Assembly: GCA_016867415.1 (NCBI GenBank)
Contig: VGJO01000002.1
Span: forward strand, 6,835-70,834
Source of the DNA: Candidatus Harrisonbacteria bacterium
GTDB taxonomy: Bacteria > Patescibacteriota > Minisyncoccia > UBA6257 > UBA11618
Length of the DNA stretch: 64,000 nucleotides
Direction: 5' to 3'
In this document: piece after piece, positions 2,994-53,270 of the stretch
Layout: each line of letters begins with the position of its first letter
Numbering within the stretch: the stretch's first letter is position 1
Notes under the pieces: generated by a model
The model's database searches: none
Told to the model about the DNA's origin: nothing
Seen by the model: the letters and a program-made list of their open reading frames with translations, nothing else
Program-made: the position numbers and the translations under genes

Positions 2994-3024
2994 ACTGTGC
3001 CTGTCATAGTCTACTGCAATTTAT

Positions 3025-3074
3025 AAAAAACACTGTCGTAAAATATAATAAATATTTTACGACAGTGTTTTTTA
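3025..3074. terminator. Bidirectional intrinsic terminator after fusA
   Basis: Near-perfect 21-bp stem AAAAAACACTGTCGTAAAATA / TATTTTACGACAGTGTTTTTT with 7-nt loop; A-run on one side and T-run on the other. Confidence 0.8.
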
Positions 3075-3135
3075 TCCCCAGTTTGACAAATAAGAAAATT
3101 TAAGTATACTAAATATTGTCAAATAGTGAGTTTTT

Positions 3136-3893: not shown

Positions 3894-4619
3894 ATGCCTC
3901 TTTTCATAAAAATCCTTTCTCTGGGGATTATCGCCCTTGGCGGCTACTATTATTTTTTCAGTTCTCCTATCCTTATTAAAAAAGTTTCTTTTAAAAGCGA
4001 AGATGGCGTTCGCCTAATAGGCAATTATTACCGAAAAAAAGATGCTGTGCAAGAAAAAGCTGTCATCCTCGTTCCCGGCCTGCCCGCAACAAGAAAAAGC
4101 CTCCGAGAGCTCGCCACTCGTCTAGTGAAAGAAGGTTTTTTTGTCCTCACTCTTGATCTCCGTGGTTCCGGTGATTCCACAAAAGGCATTCATCCGCCTA
4201 CTAACTTTAACGAAAAAAAATATAAAGCCTCCAAGCTCGACCTCGAGGCCGCCCACACCTGGCTCTTTAATCAGGGCTTTCGTGATCCGGCTATCTACAT
4301 GGGCGGTGTGGGAATTGGCGCTAATCTTGTTCTGGAGTATGCCAGCCTCCATCCAAAGACTCCCGCTCTTTTTGCCCTTTCCCCGACTCCTGAAAGTTTT
4401 GGGATCCGGCCGATGGATTTCATTGGCAATATCAATCCCTCTATTCGCATTCTTTTCCTCACTTCCACCTCCGAGCTCGAAAATCGCCAAGCTATAGATA
4501 TTTTCTCTTCATTCTTGCCAAATTCTTCTACTCAAATCTATAAAGTAGGCGGTCACGGATCTTCGCTCCTTTTACAATATCCCAAAGCCGCTATCGATAT
4601 CATTAATTTTTTCCAGTAA
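3894..4619 (+). CDS. Membrane-anchored alpha/beta-hydrolase-fold protein (nucleophile elbow reads GGVGIG, serine apparently absent)
   Basis: N-terminal TM helix; VILVPGL...LDLRGSGDS oxyanion/HGG-like region typical of alpha/beta hydrolases; GxSxG replaced by G-G-V-G-I-G. Confidence 0.5.
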   Translation: MPLFIKILSLGIIALGGYYYFFSSPILIKKVSFKSEDGVRLIGNYYRKKDAVQEKAVILVPGLPATRKSLRELATRLVKEGFFVLTLDLRGSGDSTKGIHPPTNFNEKKYKASKLDLEAAHTWLFNQGFRDPAIYMGGVGIGANLVLEYASLHPKTPALFALSPTPESFGIRPMDFIGNINPSIRILFLTSTSELENRQAIDIFSSFLPNSSTQIYKVGGHGSSLLLQYPKAAIDIINFFQ

Positions 4620-25518: not shown

Positions 25519-26295
25519 TTACAGATAACCTATTTTACGCAACCATATTCCATGCTCCCATTCCCATAAAGTCTTTGCCCCTAAAAATGCTTTAAGATCG
25601 GCCTCAAAAGAGGGGAGTTCCTTCATCTCCACAATCCCCCTCATCGGCCTCCATTCATGTTCCCCCTCCCTGCACATGCGAAAATTATACCCCCGCGGGT
25701 ACGGTTCCTTCACCTTTTCCCGTCCGCCTTTTATCCGCATCATCGCTCCACATCGAATGCAGCTCGTCGCTTGATCCACCCGCAAAATAAACCGGGTGCT
25801 AATCCCATGAAAATCATCTTGGAGAGCCTCCATATAAGCCGCGGTCTGAAGGCAATAGTCCCGATAGATAGCCTGCGAGGTTTTGATATCAAGAATCGCA
25901 TACTTACCATCGATGAGCGCCAAGCTATCAATTGTCCCCGAGTAGCGGTGCTCCTGGCTCACAATTCTACGCTCCACATACTCAGGATCGATTTGAATAT
26001 TATGGTGCCGGATAAAGTCCATCGCCGTCTCAATCGCTGGCGCGATAGTAGGGGACACGGTCACTGATTTTCCCAGTAAAAGTCCTTGGAGAGCCTCATG
26101 GACAAGCGTCCCCTCAGTCGCTGATTGCTTCTTGATCTCTTCTCCCTCCTCATAGCTAGAGAGGCTCGCATAGTAGCGATAGAGAGCTGGCTTTGCCTTT
26201 ATCTCAATGATCTTAGTCACACGCGGATACCAAACATCATCTACGAGATACCCAGCCTGACTCTGAAACTCCGCCATATCCTTATACTCATTCAT
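25519..26295 (-). CDS. PD-(D/E)XK superfamily nuclease, Cas4/RecB-nuclease-like, orphan (no cas genes nearby)
   Basis: Motifs ...D...ILDIKTS (D-x-K) and QTAAYMEAL (QxxxY); four Cys (C151, CxxC, C) possibly metal-binding. Confidence 0.65.
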   Translation of the reverse strand: MNEYKDMAEFQSQAGYLVDDVWYPRVTKIIEIKAKPALYRYYASLSSYEEGEEIKKQSATEGTLVHEALQGLLLGKSVTVSPTIAPAIETAMDFIRHHNIQIDPEYVERRIVSQEHRYSGTIDSLALIDGKYAILDIKTSQAIYRDYCLQTAAYMEALQDDFHGISTRFILRVDQATSCIRCGAMMRIKGGREKVKEPYPRGYNFRMCREGEHEWRPMRGIVEMKELPSFEADLKAFLGAKTLWEWEHGIWLRKIGYL

Positions 26296-32553: not shown

Positions 32554-33684
32554 TTACACTTTACGCATCAAACCCGCAAGAATCCCAGAGATCGTGAGAT
32601 TCACAACTAGCGCCGTTCCCCCATAACTCACAAAAGGAAGTGGCGCCCCCGTAAGCGGTATCACCCCCGAGATCGCCGCAATGTTTACAAATGCCTGAAA
32701 GCCAATGAGCCACCCATACCCCGCAAAAAGCAATCGGAAAAATTGATCCGTCTCCCGATAGGCAAAATAAAAACACATGAGCAAGATAAGCAAGTAGGCA
32801 AAAATAATCACCGCTACTCCAAGAAAACCAAACTCCTCCGCAAGAATTGCAAAGATCGAATCTCCCATCGGTTCCGGTAAATATTTGAGCTTCGTTGTCG
32901 ATTGCCCATATCCCACACCAAAAAATTGTCCGGAAGAAACTGCCTTAATCGTCTGATTAATATGGAAACTTGAAGAGCTCTGATTTTGCGCCGGATTCAA
33001 ATATGTCTCAAATCGCTTCCATTTATAAGGGGTAAGGTATATTGTCCCAGCAAGCACCGTTACTCCCAAACCACCTAAGACAAGAATATATCGCATTTTT
33101 GCTCCAGAAATAAAATACATCAAGAGTGCGGTCGAAAGAAGAATCACTGCCGTCGAAGTCGCCGGCTGCAAAAGAAGCATTCCTCCCACGAAAGACAAGA
33201 TTAAAATAAACGGCACAAATCCCTTAAAAAAATCCTCCTCCCGCTTCCGTAGAGCCGAAGAAAGCCATGCTGCAACATAAAGAACGAGAGAAATCTTCAA
33301 AAGCTCCGAGGGCTGGAAGGAAAAAAATTGCAAATTCACCCACCGCTCTGCTCCGCCTGCATTAATTCCCAGCGGTGTAAAAACTAAAACCAAAAATCCT
33401 ACCGAAAGAAGAAAGATTGGAAATGCCGCTTTCTTAAGCCATTCCCCAGCTAAAAAATACATGAAGAAAAAACCAAATAACCCCATAGGCAGGCCAGACA
33501 AAGCCTGGTGCTTCAAGTAATACCAACTATCATTAAATCTCGCTTCTCCTAAAGATAATGATGCCGAAGAAAGCATTATAAATCCGAAAAAGGTCAGGAG
33601 GAAAATAAGCAAGCCAAAAAAAATCCCCGCGTTGCTGGTATTAATCTTCAAAAAACTTTTCCTCGTCTTCCTAAATCCAAACAT
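32554..33684 (-). CDS. ftsW: SEDS-family peptidoglycan glycosyltransferase FtsW/RodA
   Basis: 10-TM SEDS topology; adjacent to murG and mraY. Confidence 0.85.
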   Translation of the reverse strand: MFGFRKTRKSFLKINTSNAGIFFGLLIFLLTFFGFIMLSSASLSLGEARFNDSWYYLKHQALSGLPMGLFGFFFMYFLAGEWLKKAAFPIFLLSVGFLVLVFTPLGINAGGAERWVNLQFFSFQPSELLKISLVLYVAAWLSSALRKREEDFFKGFVPFILILSFVGGMLLLQPATSTAVILLSTALLMYFISGAKMRYILVLGGLGVTVLAGTIYLTPYKWKRFETYLNPAQNQSSSSFHINQTIKAVSSGQFFGVGYGQSTTKLKYLPEPMGDSIFAILAEEFGFLGVAVIIFAYLLILLMCFYFAYRETDQFFRLLFAGYGWLIGFQAFVNIAAISGVIPLTGAPLPFVSYGGTALVVNLTISGILAGLMRKV

Positions 33685-37580: not shown

Positions 37581-38049
37581 TTGAGATTCCGAGCTGTCTC
37601 AATGCCGCGGACGTCAGTTGATACAAATCACTCTTTTCTCCACTAAGTAATATTTCAATCAATCCTCGCCGCAAAAGCGTCCGCACCGACTGCGCCGATG
37701 CCACTCCACGGATAATCTCAATAGCCGAAAGAGTAATTGGCTGATTGTAGGCAATTATCGTCATTATCTCAATCTGAGTCGGCGTAAGTTCCCCTTTGGT
37801 TTCCTCCCGCAAAAATTCCGCCATCCAATCTGCGGTCTCTGGAGCTGTTGTAAGCGCCACTCTATCGCCCTGCCTCTGAAGAGAAAGCCCGCTTTTCCTC
37901 TCCGTTAATTTTTGCTGCAACTCCTCAAGTCCCTTGTCCACTTCTTCCTCACTGATCTGGAGCGCCTTCGCAAGTTCTTTTATGCTCACTTCCTCTCCCC
38001 GAAAAAAAAGGTATGCTTCTAATTTTTGTTCCACTCCTAATTCCTGCAT
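37507..38049 (-). CDS. scpB: Segregation and condensation protein B
   Basis: Tandem winged-helix ScpB sequence; adjacent to scpA. Confidence 0.85.
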   Translation of the reverse strand: MQELGVEQKLEAYLFFRGEEVSIKELAKALQISEEEVDKGLEELQQKLTERKSGLSLQRQGDRVALTTAPETADWMAEFLREETKGELTPTQIEIMTIIAYNQPITLSAIEIIRGVASAQSVRTLLRRGLIEILLSGEKSDLYQLTSAALRQLGISNVSALPKYEEYKKLATKITLQNEE

Positions 38050-38879: not shown

Positions 38880-38908
38880 TTGACAAATCTTAATTTATTT
38901 GCTATAAT
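38880..38908 (+). promoter_or_regulatory. Perfect consensus sigma70 promoter (TTGACA-17-TATAAT)
   Basis: TTGACA 38880-38885, 17-bp spacer, TATAAT 38903-38908; drives the 38979..39185 small ORF. Confidence 0.75.
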
Positions 38909-38978: not shown

Positions 38979-39185
38979 ATGATTTCGTTTCTGGCCATTG
39001 TTAATGTTGTTTTTTTTCTGGGGTTAATCTCTCAGATCGGTCGAGTGACGACCATGGAAAAATACCTCGACCGCCTCTTCGAGATCTTGGTAAATCTCGA
39101 AAATCGAGCTTCCAAGCTTGAGGACGAAGAAGCCTCCGCTCTCGAATTCGAAGCGACAAACCTCGAAGTCAGCTTCGGTGACTGA
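38979..39185 (+). CDS. Small membrane-anchored acidic protein (68 aa), hypothetical
   Basis: SD-like GAGGAAA 5 nt upstream; TM helix then acidic helical tail; own promoter and terminator. Confidence 0.5.
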   Translation: MISFLAIVNVVFFLGLISQIGRVTTMEKYLDRLFEILVNLENRASKLEDEEASALEFEATNLEVSFGD

Positions 39186-39234: not shown

Positions 39235-39264
39235 CCCCGAGTAAAAATACTCGGGGATTTTTTT
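39235..39264 (+). terminator. Intrinsic terminator
   Basis: CCCCGAGUA AAAA UACUCGGGG followed by AUUUUUUU. Confidence 0.85.
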
Positions 39265-39417
39265 ACCCAAAATTTCAAACCTACTTTTTCTTCTATAAAA
39301 AGGCCCAAGCGAAGCGTTGGGCTACCAAAGGGGTGAGTCTCTGTTTAAAAAACAGAGAATAGAAATATCGATTGTACTCAATCAATATTTGTATAAAAAG
39401 ATTAAAAATCTTTTATT

Positions 39418-39579
39418 CACCCCTCCCTCTTTTGTGACCTTCTGCAGAAAAGAAGCGCGGCTTTTTTATAGCCTTATTTTTTCTTCTTACTCCCCAAAAA
39501 TAAGGCTATAAAAAATTCTTTTCGAAGCCTGAATGAAAACTCGCAGGAGCTTTCAAGTGTCACAAAAGAGGGAGGGGTG
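39418..39579. repeat. 162-nt long-hairpin inverted-repeat element (21-bp perfect outer IR, 20-bp perfect inner IR, 8-bp middle stem) upstream of dnaX
   Basis: CACCCCTCCCTCTTTTGTGAC (39418-39438) is the exact reverse complement of 39559-39579; TTTTTTATAGCCTTATTTTT (39462-39481) reverse complement at 39496-39515. Confidence 0.8.
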
Positions 39580-39654
39580 GTTTCAACCAGCTAAACAATC
39601 AAGTTAAAAAACGGTTTTCCTAATCCCTCCTAATATAGTATCCTTTCCTCACTT

Positions 39655-40746
39655 ATGTCCGCCCTCTACCGCAAATACCGTCCGCAAAAATTCTCCGACC
39701 TCCTCGGCCAGTCTGATCTTGTGACTGTAATGATAAACACGACTAAATTAGACCGCTTCGCTCACGCCTATATCTTCTATGGCACCCGTGGCACAGGCAA
39801 GACCTCCGTCGCCCGCCTCGTGGCCAAAACCGCCAATTGCACCGACCTCGAGTATAAGAAAAAGCACGGCGAAGCCTGTGATGCCTGTGATGCCTGCATG
39901 AAAATCAATCAAGGTGTCACCCTCGACATCTTCGAGATCGATGGCGCGAGCAACCGCGGCATCGATGAGATCCGCGAACTAAAGGAAAAAATCCGCGTCT
40001 CCCCTGCCTTCCTCCGCTACAAGATCTTCATTATTGATGAAGCCCACATGCTCACGACCCCCGCCTGGAACGCCCTCCTCAAAGTCTTTGAAGAGCCGCC
40101 CGCCCACGCGATCTTCATCCTCGCCACTACTGAGTTTGAAAAAATCCCCAAGACCATCCTCTCCCGCGCCCAACGCTACTTCTTCAAGCCACAAGGTATC
40201 AAAGAAATCTCCGAAAAGCTCCTTACAATCACAAAAGAAGAAAAAATCAACGCCGATAAAGACGCCTTGGAGCTCATCGCCACTTTTGCCGATGGCAGCT
40301 TCCGCGACGCCGAGTCTCTCCTCGATCAGCTCCGCTCCCTTGCCCCCACCCTTACCAAAGATGTGATCGAGGAAGCCCTCGGCCGCCTCGGCCCTGCAAG
40401 CATCCGCGAGCTCGCCCTCGCTATCTGTAAAAACGATCTGAAAAATTCCCTCGCTCTCGTCAAGAAATATGCCAGGGATGGCGTGAACTTCCCCGATCTC
40501 ATCCGCGAGCTTATTGAGCTTCTCCGCCTCGCTCTCACCCTCCATCTCGCCCCCGCACTCGAAAGCGATCTTATCGTCGATTTTGGTGAGACGGAAAGCG
40601 CAATTATCAAAGAATTAGCCACTCTCTGCCTTCCCGAAAAAATTTCTCCACTTCTAAAAGGTCTCATCGCGGCCTACGAAGAAAGTGGTACCACCCCTTT
40701 TCCCCAGCTTTCCCTTGAACTCGCCCTCATCGAAAACATAAAATAA
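39655..40746 (+). CDS. dnaX: DNA polymerase III subunit gamma/tau, short (363 aa, domains I-III only)
   Basis: Walker A GTRGTGKTS, zinc module CDACDAC, DEAH box IIDEAHML, SRAQ sensor. Confidence 0.9.
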   Translation: MSALYRKYRPQKFSDLLGQSDLVTVMINTTKLDRFAHAYIFYGTRGTGKTSVARLVAKTANCTDLEYKKKHGEACDACDACMKINQGVTLDIFEIDGASNRGIDEIRELKEKIRVSPAFLRYKIFIIDEAHMLTTPAWNALLKVFEEPPAHAIFILATTEFEKIPKTILSRAQRYFFKPQGIKEISEKLLTITKEEKINADKDALELIATFADGSFRDAESLLDQLRSLAPTLTKDVIEEALGRLGPASIRELALAICKNDLKNSLALVKKYARDGVNFPDLIRELIELLRLALTLHLAPALESDLIVDFGETESAIIKELATLCLPEKISPLLKGLIAAYEESGTTPFPQLSLELALIENIK

Positions 40747-42395: not shown

Positions 42396-42824
42396 TCAAG
42401 CCACTCTTATGGTCGGATCTTGAGGCAAGGTCACCGTTTCCTCCTGACTCGGCTGGGATTGAGCCATAGAAACAGATAGGCTAGGGTTGTCCTTTAGCTC
42501 TGTTCGTAGAATGATTACTGTTTTCGGGGCTTTTATTCCGAGCTTAGCAAACCCGAATCCGATCTTAACGACCGTCGCTTCTACGTTCCCACCAATAATG
42601 ATTTTCTCTTTGAGCTTCCTTGTTAATATTATTTGAGATGATCCCTCTCCACCCGAAGTGGATCTTCCATTGCCCGGAGCAACGAGCTCTCCTCGAAGGA
42701 TTGAGACAGAGAGCGGCGCTTCTATGAGAAGCACCACCCGGCGTCCTTTGACTGCGTTGACCTTTATGAAGATATCGTTTCCAATCTTTATCTTTTCACC
42801 AATCTTCCTTGATAGTACAAGCAC
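42396..42824 (-). CDS. csrA: Tandem-duplicated (single-chain pseudo-dimeric) carbon storage regulator CsrA; GTG start
   Basis: Two consecutive CsrA domains (MLVLSRKIGEKIKIGNDIFIKVNAVKGRRVVLLIEAPLSVSILRGEL and IILTRKLKEKIIIGGNVEATVVKIGFGFAKLGIKAPKTVIILRTEL) joined by a Gly/Ser linker; RBS GGGAGG 6 nt upstream of the GTG. Confidence 0.8.
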   Translation of the reverse strand: MLVLSRKIGEKIKIGNDIFIKVNAVKGRRVVLLIEAPLSVSILRGELVAPGNGRSTSGGEGSSQIILTRKLKEKIIIGGNVEATVVKIGFGFAKLGIKAPKTVIILRTELKDNPSLSVSMAQSQPSQEETVTLPQDPTIRVA

Positions 42825-42985: not shown

Positions 42986-43459
42986 CTACCCCTTGACAAG
43001 CGTCTTGATGAAAGAAACCACCTCGCCGACATGCGTCGCCGGTGTCACCTTCTCCCACTTCTTCACCACCTTCCCTTTTTGGTCAATGAGAAAGGTGTTG
43101 CGGGAGGTCCCCATATACTTTTGTCCCATCATTGTCTTCTCTCCCCACGAATCCATTTTTTCAATAAGAATATGCTCCGGATCCGAGAGGAGGGTGAATG
43201 GTAATTTCTTCTCCTCGCAAAATTTCGCGTGTGACTTCACGCTATCCTTTGATACTCCTACTACTCTCACTCCAAGCTTTTTTAGTTCCGTGACCGAATC
43301 CCGAAATCCTTCCGCCTCCACCGTACATCCCGGCGTATTATCCTTTGGATAAAAATACAGCACTAAAAACTCCTGACTCAAAAGGTCTTGAAGCTTCACC
43401 TCCCGTCCCTGCTCATCCTGCAAACTAACATTTTTTGGCAATACCTCTCCTTCTTTCAT
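42986..43459 (-). CDS. bcp: Peroxiredoxin, Bcp/PrxQ type (thiol peroxidase)
   Basis: FYPKDNTPGCT peroxidatic Cys motif; 157 aa. Confidence 0.9.
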   Translation of the reverse strand: MKEGEVLPKNVSLQDEQGREVKLQDLLSQEFLVLYFYPKDNTPGCTVEAEGFRDSVTELKKLGVRVVGVSKDSVKSHAKFCEEKKLPFTLLSDPEHILIEKMDSWGEKTMMGQKYMGTSRNTFLIDQKGKVVKKWEKVTPATHVGEVVSFIKTLVKG

Positions 43460-44879: not shown

Positions 44880-45085
44880 GAGAATCTCCTATGGGAAAGG
44901 TTAAAGAACATCAATAAACTCACAGGCACATAAAAAATAATATAAAAGCAGATTTTTGTAAAGTGAATGAAAAAATTAACTAATCGGCGGCCGTCGATTG
45001 GATAAGTAAAAAGAAAAAGAGAGGGAAAGAGGATCAAACTGTCATAGCTAACACTAAAATATATTTACAAAATATATATCTTTCA

Positions 45086-45472
45086 AAAGGGAAGCCGATA
45101 AGCCGGATTCTGTCATAATCTAATAAAAGATTATGGGATGGCAATTTGTCTATGCGGCACTCCCAGCATCACTTTTTATTCCTCATGAGGAATAAAAAGT
45201 GATGCTGGGCACGGCCTTGCACTCAGGTAAGGGTTTAGCCGTTTCATCAGAGAAATATGAGACTTCTTTCTCTGCTGGAGGCAAGATCTCTCCTCCGCGA
45301 TTTCTTTTCAAAAACCACCGTCTCTGTTCGCACCTCGAGCTTAGGAGGTTGCCCTCCCTATACCGACAGGCTTACACCTGCTACCCATTACTACAAAGAT
45401 TACTCCTCATAGTGAGTGTCCGGACTTTCCTCAGCAAAGCTTACGCTCTGCCGTAACCATCAAGCTTCCCAA
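45086..45472 (-). ncRNA. rnpB: RNase P RNA (bacterial type A), about 385 nt
   Basis: Minus-strand sequence contains the conserved P4 5' strand GAGGAAAGUCCGGAC, the GUGCGAACAGAGACGG region (cf. E. coli GUGCAACAGAGAG) and the P4 3' strand ACAGAAUCCGGCUUAUCGG; P1 formed by GGGAAGCU/GGCUUCCC at the ends; contains a 23-bp perfect helix (45160-45210). Confidence 0.85.
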
Positions 45473-50790: not shown

Positions 50791-50929
50791 TCTAGGAATA
50801 CTTTGCATTCAAAGCATTCGCTAATCGCATGAAGAAATCCCTTCAATACAATATTATATTGAAGGGATTTCTTTTTACGCAGATTCCTATTAAATTTGAC
50901 ACTAATAAAATAGAAAAGATGAACGCAAA

Positions 50930-52809: not shown

Positions 52810-53230
52810 TCTTACAAAAATTTCAGAGAAAGACCGCAGAGCTCTAGCCTATGAGATGCGCCGCATAATGAAGGCTCACGATGGCGTCGGCCTCTCGGCC
52901 AACCAACTCGGCCTCTCACACCGCTTCTTCATCGCCGAAAACAATCGCAAATTCTACGCCATCTGGAATCCAGAGATTTCCAAAATCTCTAATAAAAGCG
53001 CTACTGAAGAAGAAGGTTGCCTCTCGATTCCTGGCGTCTTTGGCCAAGTCTCCCGTTCCATCGCCGTCACTCTTACTGGCCTCGATCTCCGTGGTAAAAA
53101 AGTCTCTCACAAAGCAACTGGTTTCTTAGCCCGCATCTTCCAGCATGAGCTCGACCATCTTGATGGTATTCTCTTCACCGACAAAGCCACTAATATCCGC
53201 GAAGAATCCCTGCCCGTTTCTATACAATAA
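52742..53230 (+). CDS. def: Peptide deformylase
   Basis: GVGLSANQLG, EGCLSIPG, HELDHL motifs. Confidence 0.92.
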   Translation: MTIITVHNKKQEQILRTKTDPSDLTKISEKDRRALAYEMRRIMKAHDGVGLSANQLGLSHRFFIAENNRKFYAIWNPEISKISNKSATEEEGCLSIPGVFGQVSRSIAVTLTGLDLRGKKVSHKATGFLARIFQHELDHLDGILFTDKATNIREESLPVSIQ

Positions 53231-53260
53231 AAAATCACTACAATGTAGTGATTTTTTATT
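53229..53260. terminator. Bidirectional intrinsic terminator between def and the DEAD-box helicase gene
   Basis: AAAAAAUCACUA CAAUG UAGUGAUUUUUU. Confidence 0.85.
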
Positions 53261-53270
53261 GTATAGATTC

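Follow-up and report, generated by a model that had tools for sequence, protein, structure and literature searches.

Several kinds of long hairpin have been described in bacterial genomes. The small bacterial signal recognition particle (SRP) RNA (4.5S; RF00169) is often encoded upstream of dnaX in Firmicutes, 6S RNA (ssrS, RF00013 and related families) is a stand-alone non-coding RNA that folds into a rod, and Correia/CREE, ERIC, RUP and the Rickettsia palindromic elements are miniature inverted-repeat transposable elements (MITEs) with hairpin transcripts. In this study, we analyzed a 162-nt nested hairpin at positions 39418-39579 of a 64,000-nt stretch of DNA (hereafter, the window) from a Candidatus Harrisonbacteria bacterium (assembly GCA_016867415.1, contig VGJO01000002.1). 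The element lies upstream of dnaX and resembles each of these systems in part. We tentatively interpret it as part of an orphan, lineage-specific and highly structured small RNA gene, which would be located on the minus strand and divergent from dnaX.

The organism belongs to the Candidate Phyla Radiation (CPR; Patescibacteria), bacteria with tiny genomes in which, to our knowledge, almost nothing is known of regulatory RNAs. Standard covariance models miss even the RNase P RNA of CPR bacteria. In diverged CPR RNase P RNAs, which score under the Rfam thresholds, the P15 helix is extended and the UGG motif is missing (Lui et al. 2021, PMC8172020).

The nested hairpin

The initial annotation described the element as a set of nested perfect inverted repeats, and a repeat search recovered all of them in the same place. 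The outermost is a 21-bp perfect inverted repeat with 120 nt between its arms, CACCCCTCCCTCTTTTGTGAC (39418-39438) and GTCACAAAAGAGGGAGGGGTG (39559-39579); in the minus-strand reading, the former arm would be the 3' half of the closing stem. An 8-bp stem (39447-39454/39516-39523) and a 20-bp inner repeat (39462-39481/39496-39515), both 100% complementary, are nested within it. These two form the apical arm of the rod (39447-39523), in which the 8-bp stem is followed by a one-sided 7-nt bulge (GCGCGGC, 39455-39461), the 20-bp perfect stem and a 14-nt apical loop (39482-39495). The main axis of the element comprises 49 perfectly paired bp, interrupted by this bulge and by a central internal loop that is very asymmetric, with 8 nt in one strand (39439-39446) and 35 nt in the other (39524-39558, assigned to the minus strand). 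Folds of both strands place a 9-bp side hairpin (39534-39555) in the 35-nt loop strand, which adds to the earlier description.

The annotation further argued that such a hairpin would not be expected by chance, and this was borne out by the folding and shuffling statistics. The segment 39410-39590 folds with -75.7 kcal/mol on the plus strand (z -9.2) and -80.7 kcal/mol on the minus strand (z -9.0), and in both cases 0 of 200 dinucleotide shuffles were as stable; folded as single-stranded DNA, the element has a z of -11. Among all 180-nt segments folded in a sliding scan of the window, none is more stable on either strand. The outer-arm 21-mer has two matches in the window against 0.00 expected, the numbers of additional matches expected from window shuffles are 0.00 for the 21-mer and 0.03 for the 20-mer, and an inverted repeat of 21 perfect nt within 400 nt, at any place in the 64 kb, has an estimated expectation of ~6e-6. 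The nested hairpin is real and far beyond chance.

For comparison within the species we used conspecific Logan and JGI contigs (designated by L numbers), with coordinates given relative to the window. Each of the 10 other distinct conspecific assemblies spanning the element carries it in the same single orientation, identical apart from single-nucleotide polymorphisms (SNPs). Since these assemblies come from different sequencing runs, the element is not an assembly artifact. One further contig, L091 (JGI 3300020084), ends at window position 39463, in the first bases of the inner arm, where the inverted repeat may have broken the assembly.

A candidate RNA on the minus strand

The conspecific contigs revealed three haplotypes of the element. 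Over the 469-nt intergenic region, five of the first six contigs do not differ from the window. A second haplotype, in L006 (ERR14789951), has three substitutions in this region, all of which fall within the inner hairpin: 39470 A>G, 39491 T>A in the loop and 39507 T>C. Since 39470 pairs with 39507, an A-T pair is here replaced with G-C. The same three changes are present in L096 (ERR14789947), an independent sample with 34 differences from the window in ~6200 positions, most of them in the third position of codons; at this divergence, ~0.2 substitutions would be expected in the 54-nt inner segment, compared with the three seen. The third haplotype, in L090 (SRR16108675), has 39507 T>C as its sole difference in 1623 nt. 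L090 has none of the other SNPs of haplotype 2, not even that at 39491, which is 16 nt from 39507, and a chimeric origin from the other two haplotypes can therefore be dismissed. At 39470/39507 it is intermediate: the plus strand has a mismatched A.C, the minus strand a G.U wobble.

The minus strand thus has A-U, G.U and G-C at this pair in the three haplotypes; on that strand, each of the 174 pair cells that they contribute is a standard pair. Such a series, in which a compensatory substitution is caught in progress within one species, is rare. Base-pair-preserving variation was seen at this one pair only and is statistically weak; the series is one well-documented event, not statistical covariation. 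On the same strand, the apical loop of haplotype 2 becomes GGGGUG, the same as the end of the 3' arm, which may be chance.

The element is also the largest of five consecutive hairpins (~39295-39580), which fill ~290 nt of the ~470-nt intergenic region. The 128 nt to its left (39290-39417) are structured as well, with z ~-6 on both strands. On the minus strand, the repeat search and folds identified hairpin 2 (39396-39414; 8 bp, A/U only) and hairpin 4 (39338-39358; 9 bp, perfect, with a 3-nt loop), and folds identified hairpin 3 (39363-39390; 12 bp on this strand). Farther left is an intrinsic-terminator-like site (39293-39322, minus strand), in which a GC-rich stem (39322-39303) is followed by CTTTTTATAG; it would provide the 3' end of the proposed RNA. 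The run CTTTTT follows the stem on the minus strand only. An 8-nt sequence between hairpin 4 and this site, AGGGGTGA (39329-39336), is the complement of the first bases of the outer arm, TCACCCCT (39417-39424), and could compete with the closing stem, although the match may be chance.

At the other end of the block, the best promoter-like site of the intergenic region lies on the minus strand at 39632-39661 (CGGACA-18-TATATT), with a predicted start at ~39625. Its -10 box (39637-39632) overlaps the plus-strand -10 box of dnaX (TATAGT, 39635-39640). The hexamer TATATT is also found, on reading the sequence, ~7 nt upstream of the RNase P RNA gene of the same genome. The terminator-like site faces the plus-strand terminator of the upstream 68-aa gene, a layout expected of two convergent units, and upstream of the site there is no protein gene on the minus strand. 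The promoter- and terminator-like sites that bracket the block on the minus strand are consensus matches only. Two imperfect pairs point to the same strand. Both 39539/39550, in the side hairpin, and 39369/39384, in hairpin 3, are G.U wobbles when the minus strand is read, whereas the plus strand has A.C at the former and C.A at the latter. Strand, promoter and terminator signals are weak singly but agree with one another. Of the three options raised in the initial annotation (a mobile element, a protein-binding cruciform and a structured RNA), the last is the best supported, by the change from A-T to G-C via G.U, the minus-strand signals and the four extra hairpins, and its transcript is a predicted one.

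From these features we infer the transcription, strand, ends and function of an RNA of ~330 nt, which would run on the minus strand from ~39625 to ~39295 and have the 162-nt nested hairpin as its main domain. It would start at a sigma-70-like promoter that stands back-to-back with that of dnaX, the -10 boxes overlapping. The transcript would then pass the rod, i.e., the 21-bp closing stem, the asymmetric internal loop with its side hairpin and a 28-bp apical arm, run through three short hairpins and end at the intrinsic terminator facing that of the upstream small gene. Such an RNA would be constrained in its fold and not in its sequence. Our best guess for its role is protein binding or a decoy function, e.g., for RNA polymerase or an enzyme that binds double-stranded RNA. 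Because the two promoters overlap, its transcription may, as a matter of speculation, compete with that of dnaX. As a five-hairpin, single-copy unit of ~330 nt, kept in a genome that is compact and largely leaderless, the block makes a good lineage-specific RNA candidate.

A number of observations weigh against this interpretation. The promoter matches the consensus at only 9/12 positions, and the minus-strand terminator has just 6 bp and a run of 5 T; moreover, the region contains four terminator-like sites compared with 1.0 expected. The strand argument depends on three G.U-versus-A.C positions, with an estimated p of ~0.04-0.07 under a transition-biased null. As for the paired substitutions, 350 of 500 shuffles do as well, and three sequences cannot give significance. 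The 49 bp of the main axis contain neither a mismatch nor a wobble pair, which is unusual for an old RNA gene and fits a recent, DNA-level origin. Compensatory changes in palindromes can arise without selection when quasi-palindromes are corrected by template switching. Finally, no homologue was found in any collection searched, hence there is no phylogenetic covariation.

Palindromic DNA and rival explanations

The last of these concerns about the helices bears on other loci of the genome as well. While examining the second most stable region of the window, we identified a bacterial type A RNase P RNA at 45083-45472 on the minus strand (64 bits, E 4e-19). It scores below the gathering score of 100 and was missed by the default scan; it has no P18, and its P12-P14 region is much altered. 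A spacerless perfect palindrome of 48 nt (45162-45209) forms its P15-P17 arm of 24 perfect bp; this palindrome was compared as a calibration of variation and is identical in the second haplotype. Since this RNA falls below the Rfam cut-off, a negative Rfam scan is weak evidence in this lineage, and since it contains a perfect 24-bp arm, perfect long helices do not argue against an RNA here. On the other hand, palindrome centers of 0-1 nt are not demanded by selection at the RNA level and therefore point to a palindrome-forming or palindrome-correcting process at the DNA level; the palindromic center in RNase P RNA hints at such an origin. This process could also produce a 'compensatory' pair without selection, which counts against an RNA gene and keeps alive the explanation by palindromic DNA discussed below.

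Several Logan contigs end inside the RNase P palindrome (L101, L106 and L108 at 45180; L001 at 45191), and L107 stops at 45171, 15 nt short of its center. These ends look like k-mer assembly breaks at a perfect palindrome. Further perfect or near-perfect palindromes, with arms of 21-24 nt and centers of 0-5 nt, are located at 3023-3075, just after the EF-G gene, and at 50832-50873 and 53219-53267, both between convergent genes. They have the A-run/stem/T-run layout of bidirectional terminators.

The main rival explanation, which we consider unlikely, is that the element is selfish or accidental palindromic DNA without an RNA function, either a solo or low-copy MITE-like element or a palindrome formed by foldback or template switching in a palindrome-tolerant genome. 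Its size of 162 bp, its perfect 21-bp terminal inverted repeats and its nested hairpin fit the MITE body plan, and total perfection over 49 bp points to a recent or DNA-level origin. Other true palindromes with centers of 0-1 nt occur in the window (45162-45209, 50832-50873 and 53219-53267), and no relative has the element upstream of dnaX. The concentration of the three SNPs in the inner hairpin is likewise as expected of a mutational hot spot with arm-to-arm correction. The mobile form of this explanation, which the initial annotation proposed, nevertheless found little in the comparisons. We searched the window together with 12.5 kb of flanks from longer contigs (76.5 kb, about a tenth of the likely genome), and neither exact searches, searches with up to 3 mismatches, blastn-short, nhmmer nor a covariance model of the fold (R1) found a further copy in this tenth. 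There is no target-site duplication: the flanks (TTTTATT|...|GTTTCAA; ...TCTTTTATT and GTTTCAACC...) have no direct repeat of 2-9 bp in common, whatever the register. Neither the 21-mer nor a gapped two-arm pattern had an exact match in JGI metagenome contigs or IMG/VR; the JGI scan missed the locus itself in spite of JGI contigs of the species (L091, L098-L100) and is uninformative on copies in this genome. Nor did blastn match the element in phage or plasmid collections. No empty site was present among the conspecific contigs, in all of which the element is fixed. Palindromic DNA would also leave unexplained the four extra hairpins, the minus-strand terminator and the fact that the imperfect pairs are all G.U on one strand. 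The element is most likely not a mobile element, judging from these searches, although with about a tenth of the genome covered it may still be a low-copy MITE. If it is the product of palindrome-forming replication errors, it would, together with the RNase P palindrome, document that this lineage tolerates or generates long perfect palindromes to an unusual extent.

Two further explanations assign a function to the element, one in the mRNA of its neighbor and the other in DNA. An element on the plus strand could be part of a transcript that starts at the strong 68-aa gene promoter and reads through into dnaX, and could serve as an RNase III site, an insulator or stabilizer, or a dnaX leader. 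The 68-aa gene has a perfect promoter, the plus strand folds almost as well as the minus strand, and perfect helices of 20-21 bp are ideal RNase III substrates; in addition, the G-rich 3' arm could pair with CCUUUCCUC just before the dnaX AUG, as read from the sequence. We nonetheless regard this as improbable, because a strong terminator separates the 68-aa gene from the block, no credible plus-strand promoter lies inside the region, and the plus strand has mismatches in the intermediate haplotype and at both imperfect pairs. The genome is also largely leaderless, with the -10 box of dnaX ending 15 nt before its ATG, and relatives have only 20-180 nt upstream of dnaX. The remaining possibility, to which we give still less credence, is a functional site at the DNA level: an invertible (phase-variable) segment, or a protein-binding site, cruciform or dimeric, with control over the two back-to-back promoters. 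Perfect 21-bp inverted repeats surround a 120-bp asymmetric segment beside a promoter region, a layout that resembles invertons such as the fimS-type and Bacteroides-type switches, and the stability of the single-stranded DNA fold is consistent with such a site. Yet at the assembly level the window and 10/10 other spanning assemblies have one orientation, no recombinase gene is located within +/-5 kb, and dnaX is essential and hence an unlikely target of phase variation. Inversion would also give no role to the internal 20-bp palindrome or to the extra hairpins.

The relation to dnaX was examined through gene starts in the window. A Shine-Dalgarno-like sequence precedes only 7 of 46 well-defined genes and is missing from 39, and 12 of the 46 have a TATAAT-like box that ends 5-11 nt before the start codon, perfect in six. 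Examples of the leaderless type are the genes at 3894, 25519-26295 (minus strand), 32554-33684 (minus strand), 42986-43459 (minus strand) and 50098. These patterns suggest that mRNAs of this organism are widely leaderless or have very short leaders. Given the position of the dnaX -10 box, the hairpin lies upstream of the likely dnaX promoter and is probably not within the dnaX leader. The link between hairpin and dnaX implied in the annotation is weakened accordingly by -10 boxes located 5-15 nt before start codons and by the general scarcity of Shine-Dalgarno sequences.

The DnaX of this locus is assigned in NCBI annotation to a Candidatus Harrisonbacteria metagenome-assembled genome. The next most similar DnaX in a search of 5.8 billion proteins is 52-53% identical, and the closest GTDB species representatives have DnaX proteins that are ~50% identical. 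In 19 related CPR loci, the regions upstream of dnaX are non-syntenic, 20-180 nt long and without a comparable hairpin, and nhmmer, blastn and covariance model searches of 86 loci in relatives detected no homologous element. With DnaX so distant and the neighboring 68-aa gene an ORFan (a gene without homologues), phylogenetic covariation analysis is impossible.

Neighboring genes and described systems

The block is surrounded by housekeeping genes, and the neighborhood includes a mraY-like gene, a D-Ala-D-Ala carboxypeptidase gene, scpB, scpA, the 68-aa membrane ORFan, dnaX, a cupin gene, lexA, csrA and ahpC. The position of dnaX was as annotated: it starts at 39655, 75 nt past the element, and encodes 363 aa with a canonical N-terminus. 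Likewise, the upstream terminator was found again as a terminator-like hairpin at 39235-39256 followed by a T run. It is strong (9-bp stem with 6 GC pairs, then 7 T), belongs to the 68-aa ORFan gene (38979-39185) and, at 39235-39264 on the plus strand, would form the left limit of the transcription unit of the block. The promoter of the ORFan gene (38880-38908) is a perfect TTGACA-17-TATAAT with an upstream TG, and the gene is among the few here that have a long leader and a Shine-Dalgarno sequence. Its product is predicted to have a single N-terminal hydrophobic helix and an acidic, coiled-coil-like tail; among 5.8 billion proteins it has no homologue except its own 99% variant. Small open reading frames of 21-64 aa in the intergenic region were dismissed, as they have no ribosome-binding sites and their sequences are dictated by the palindrome.

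Some variation was noted elsewhere in the region. In L096, a dense cluster of 12 SNPs (contig positions 2425-2490, corresponding to window 37858-37918) lies beside a replacement of 9 nt with 42 nt in scpB and looks like a short recombination tract; the scpB product of haplotype 2 has 186 aa instead of 180. Just past the right end of the window, the conspecific JGI contig L099 (1-3531) has an ABC-type ATPase gene between ftsX and a competence gene, where L097 and L098 have two small open reading frames. The GC skew of the plus strand is strongly and uniformly negative (-0.15 to -0.28 from 16 kb onward), regardless of gene orientation.

Scans against Rfam did not place the element in a known family. 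At the gathering score or at E<=10, scans of 1 kb and 356 nt with lax filters returned no SRP (RF00169/RF01854), 6S, tmRNA, riboswitch or ribozyme match, and a scan of the whole window at E<=0.1 gave no match for the element. The E<=10 scans produced only generic hairpin matches, e.g., microRNA precursors, far below cut-offs. The doubt that the initial annotation expressed about SRP RNA was well founded: the 14-nt apical loop (UCUUCUUACUCCCC / GGGGAGUAAGAAGA) is not a GNRA tetraloop, helix-8 loops are absent, and 0 of the 19 related CPR loci have an SRP RNA upstream of dnaX.

Other identities were also considered and rejected. A sponge RNA for CsrA was conceivable with a tandem-domain csrA gene 3 kb away; however, GGA is not enriched (7 in 361 nt versus a minus-strand mean of 9.3), and most GGA motifs of this 361-nt region are at or upstream of the predicted RNA start. 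The CsrA homologue itself (42396-42824, minus strand; 141-142 aa) contains two matched CsrA stretches and looks like a tandem 'single-chain dimer', CsrA proteins normally having 60-75 aa. A type I toxin-antitoxin pair with the 68-aa membrane protein was discarded: complementarity does not exceed that of shuffles, PADLOC and Pfam offer no support, and the transcripts would not overlap. There is no reverse transcriptase nearby for a retron or diversity-generating retroelement, and for an integron attC site no integrase is nearby and no core sites were seen in the sequence. The cumulative GC skew is monotonic across the window, which therefore contains no replication origin or terminus, and a phage or plasmid origin does not fit the absence of a blastn match.

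The block would be an unclassified structured small RNA or hairpin element. Either way, the finding is local and orphan, and by itself it resolves no long-standing question. It can be compared with the described systems. With SRP RNA (4.5S, RF00169) it shares the form of a long hairpin immediately upstream of dnaX. The bacterial MITEs introduced above are similar to it in being intergenic elements of 100-200 bp with a long hairpin and in having terminal inverted repeats of 20-26 bp. Unlike them, it is single-copy in the 76.5 kb searched and has no target-site duplication, no related copies in the searched collections and no presence/absence polymorphism. The RNase P RNA of the same genome, which matches the diverged CPR type of the published set (PMC8172020), is like the element in that it combines a perfect long helix with invisibility at the Rfam gathering score. 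That RNA, however, could be identified by its conserved catalytic core, whereas the element has no recognizable core or family.

From 6S RNA, the element differs in having no covariance-model match in the scans at E<=10 (356 nt and 1 kb), in helices that are perfect and not interrupted by small bulges, and in an internal loop of 35 versus 8 nt; a side hairpin on the 3' side of the bubble would be present only on the plus strand, whereas the G.U evidence favors the minus strand. With these differences in mind, it would be a bold and rather improbable extension of our analysis to see in the block an unrecognized class of rod-shaped regulatory RNA of CPR bacteria, possibly a functional analogue of 6S RNA that serves as a promoter-mimicking decoy for RNA polymerase. 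In such a case, its promoter would be interlocked with that of dnaX, RNA synthesis and clamp-loader expression would be reciprocally coupled, and the perfect helices would be kept by the same palindrome-correcting replication that also shaped RNase P RNA. In general shape the element resembles 6S RNA, as a rod of ~160 nt in which a ~21-bp closing stem leads through a central loop, here very asymmetric, into an apical arm of ~28 bp; its setting is also similar, a stand-alone non-coding locus with promoter-like and terminator-like signals of its own.

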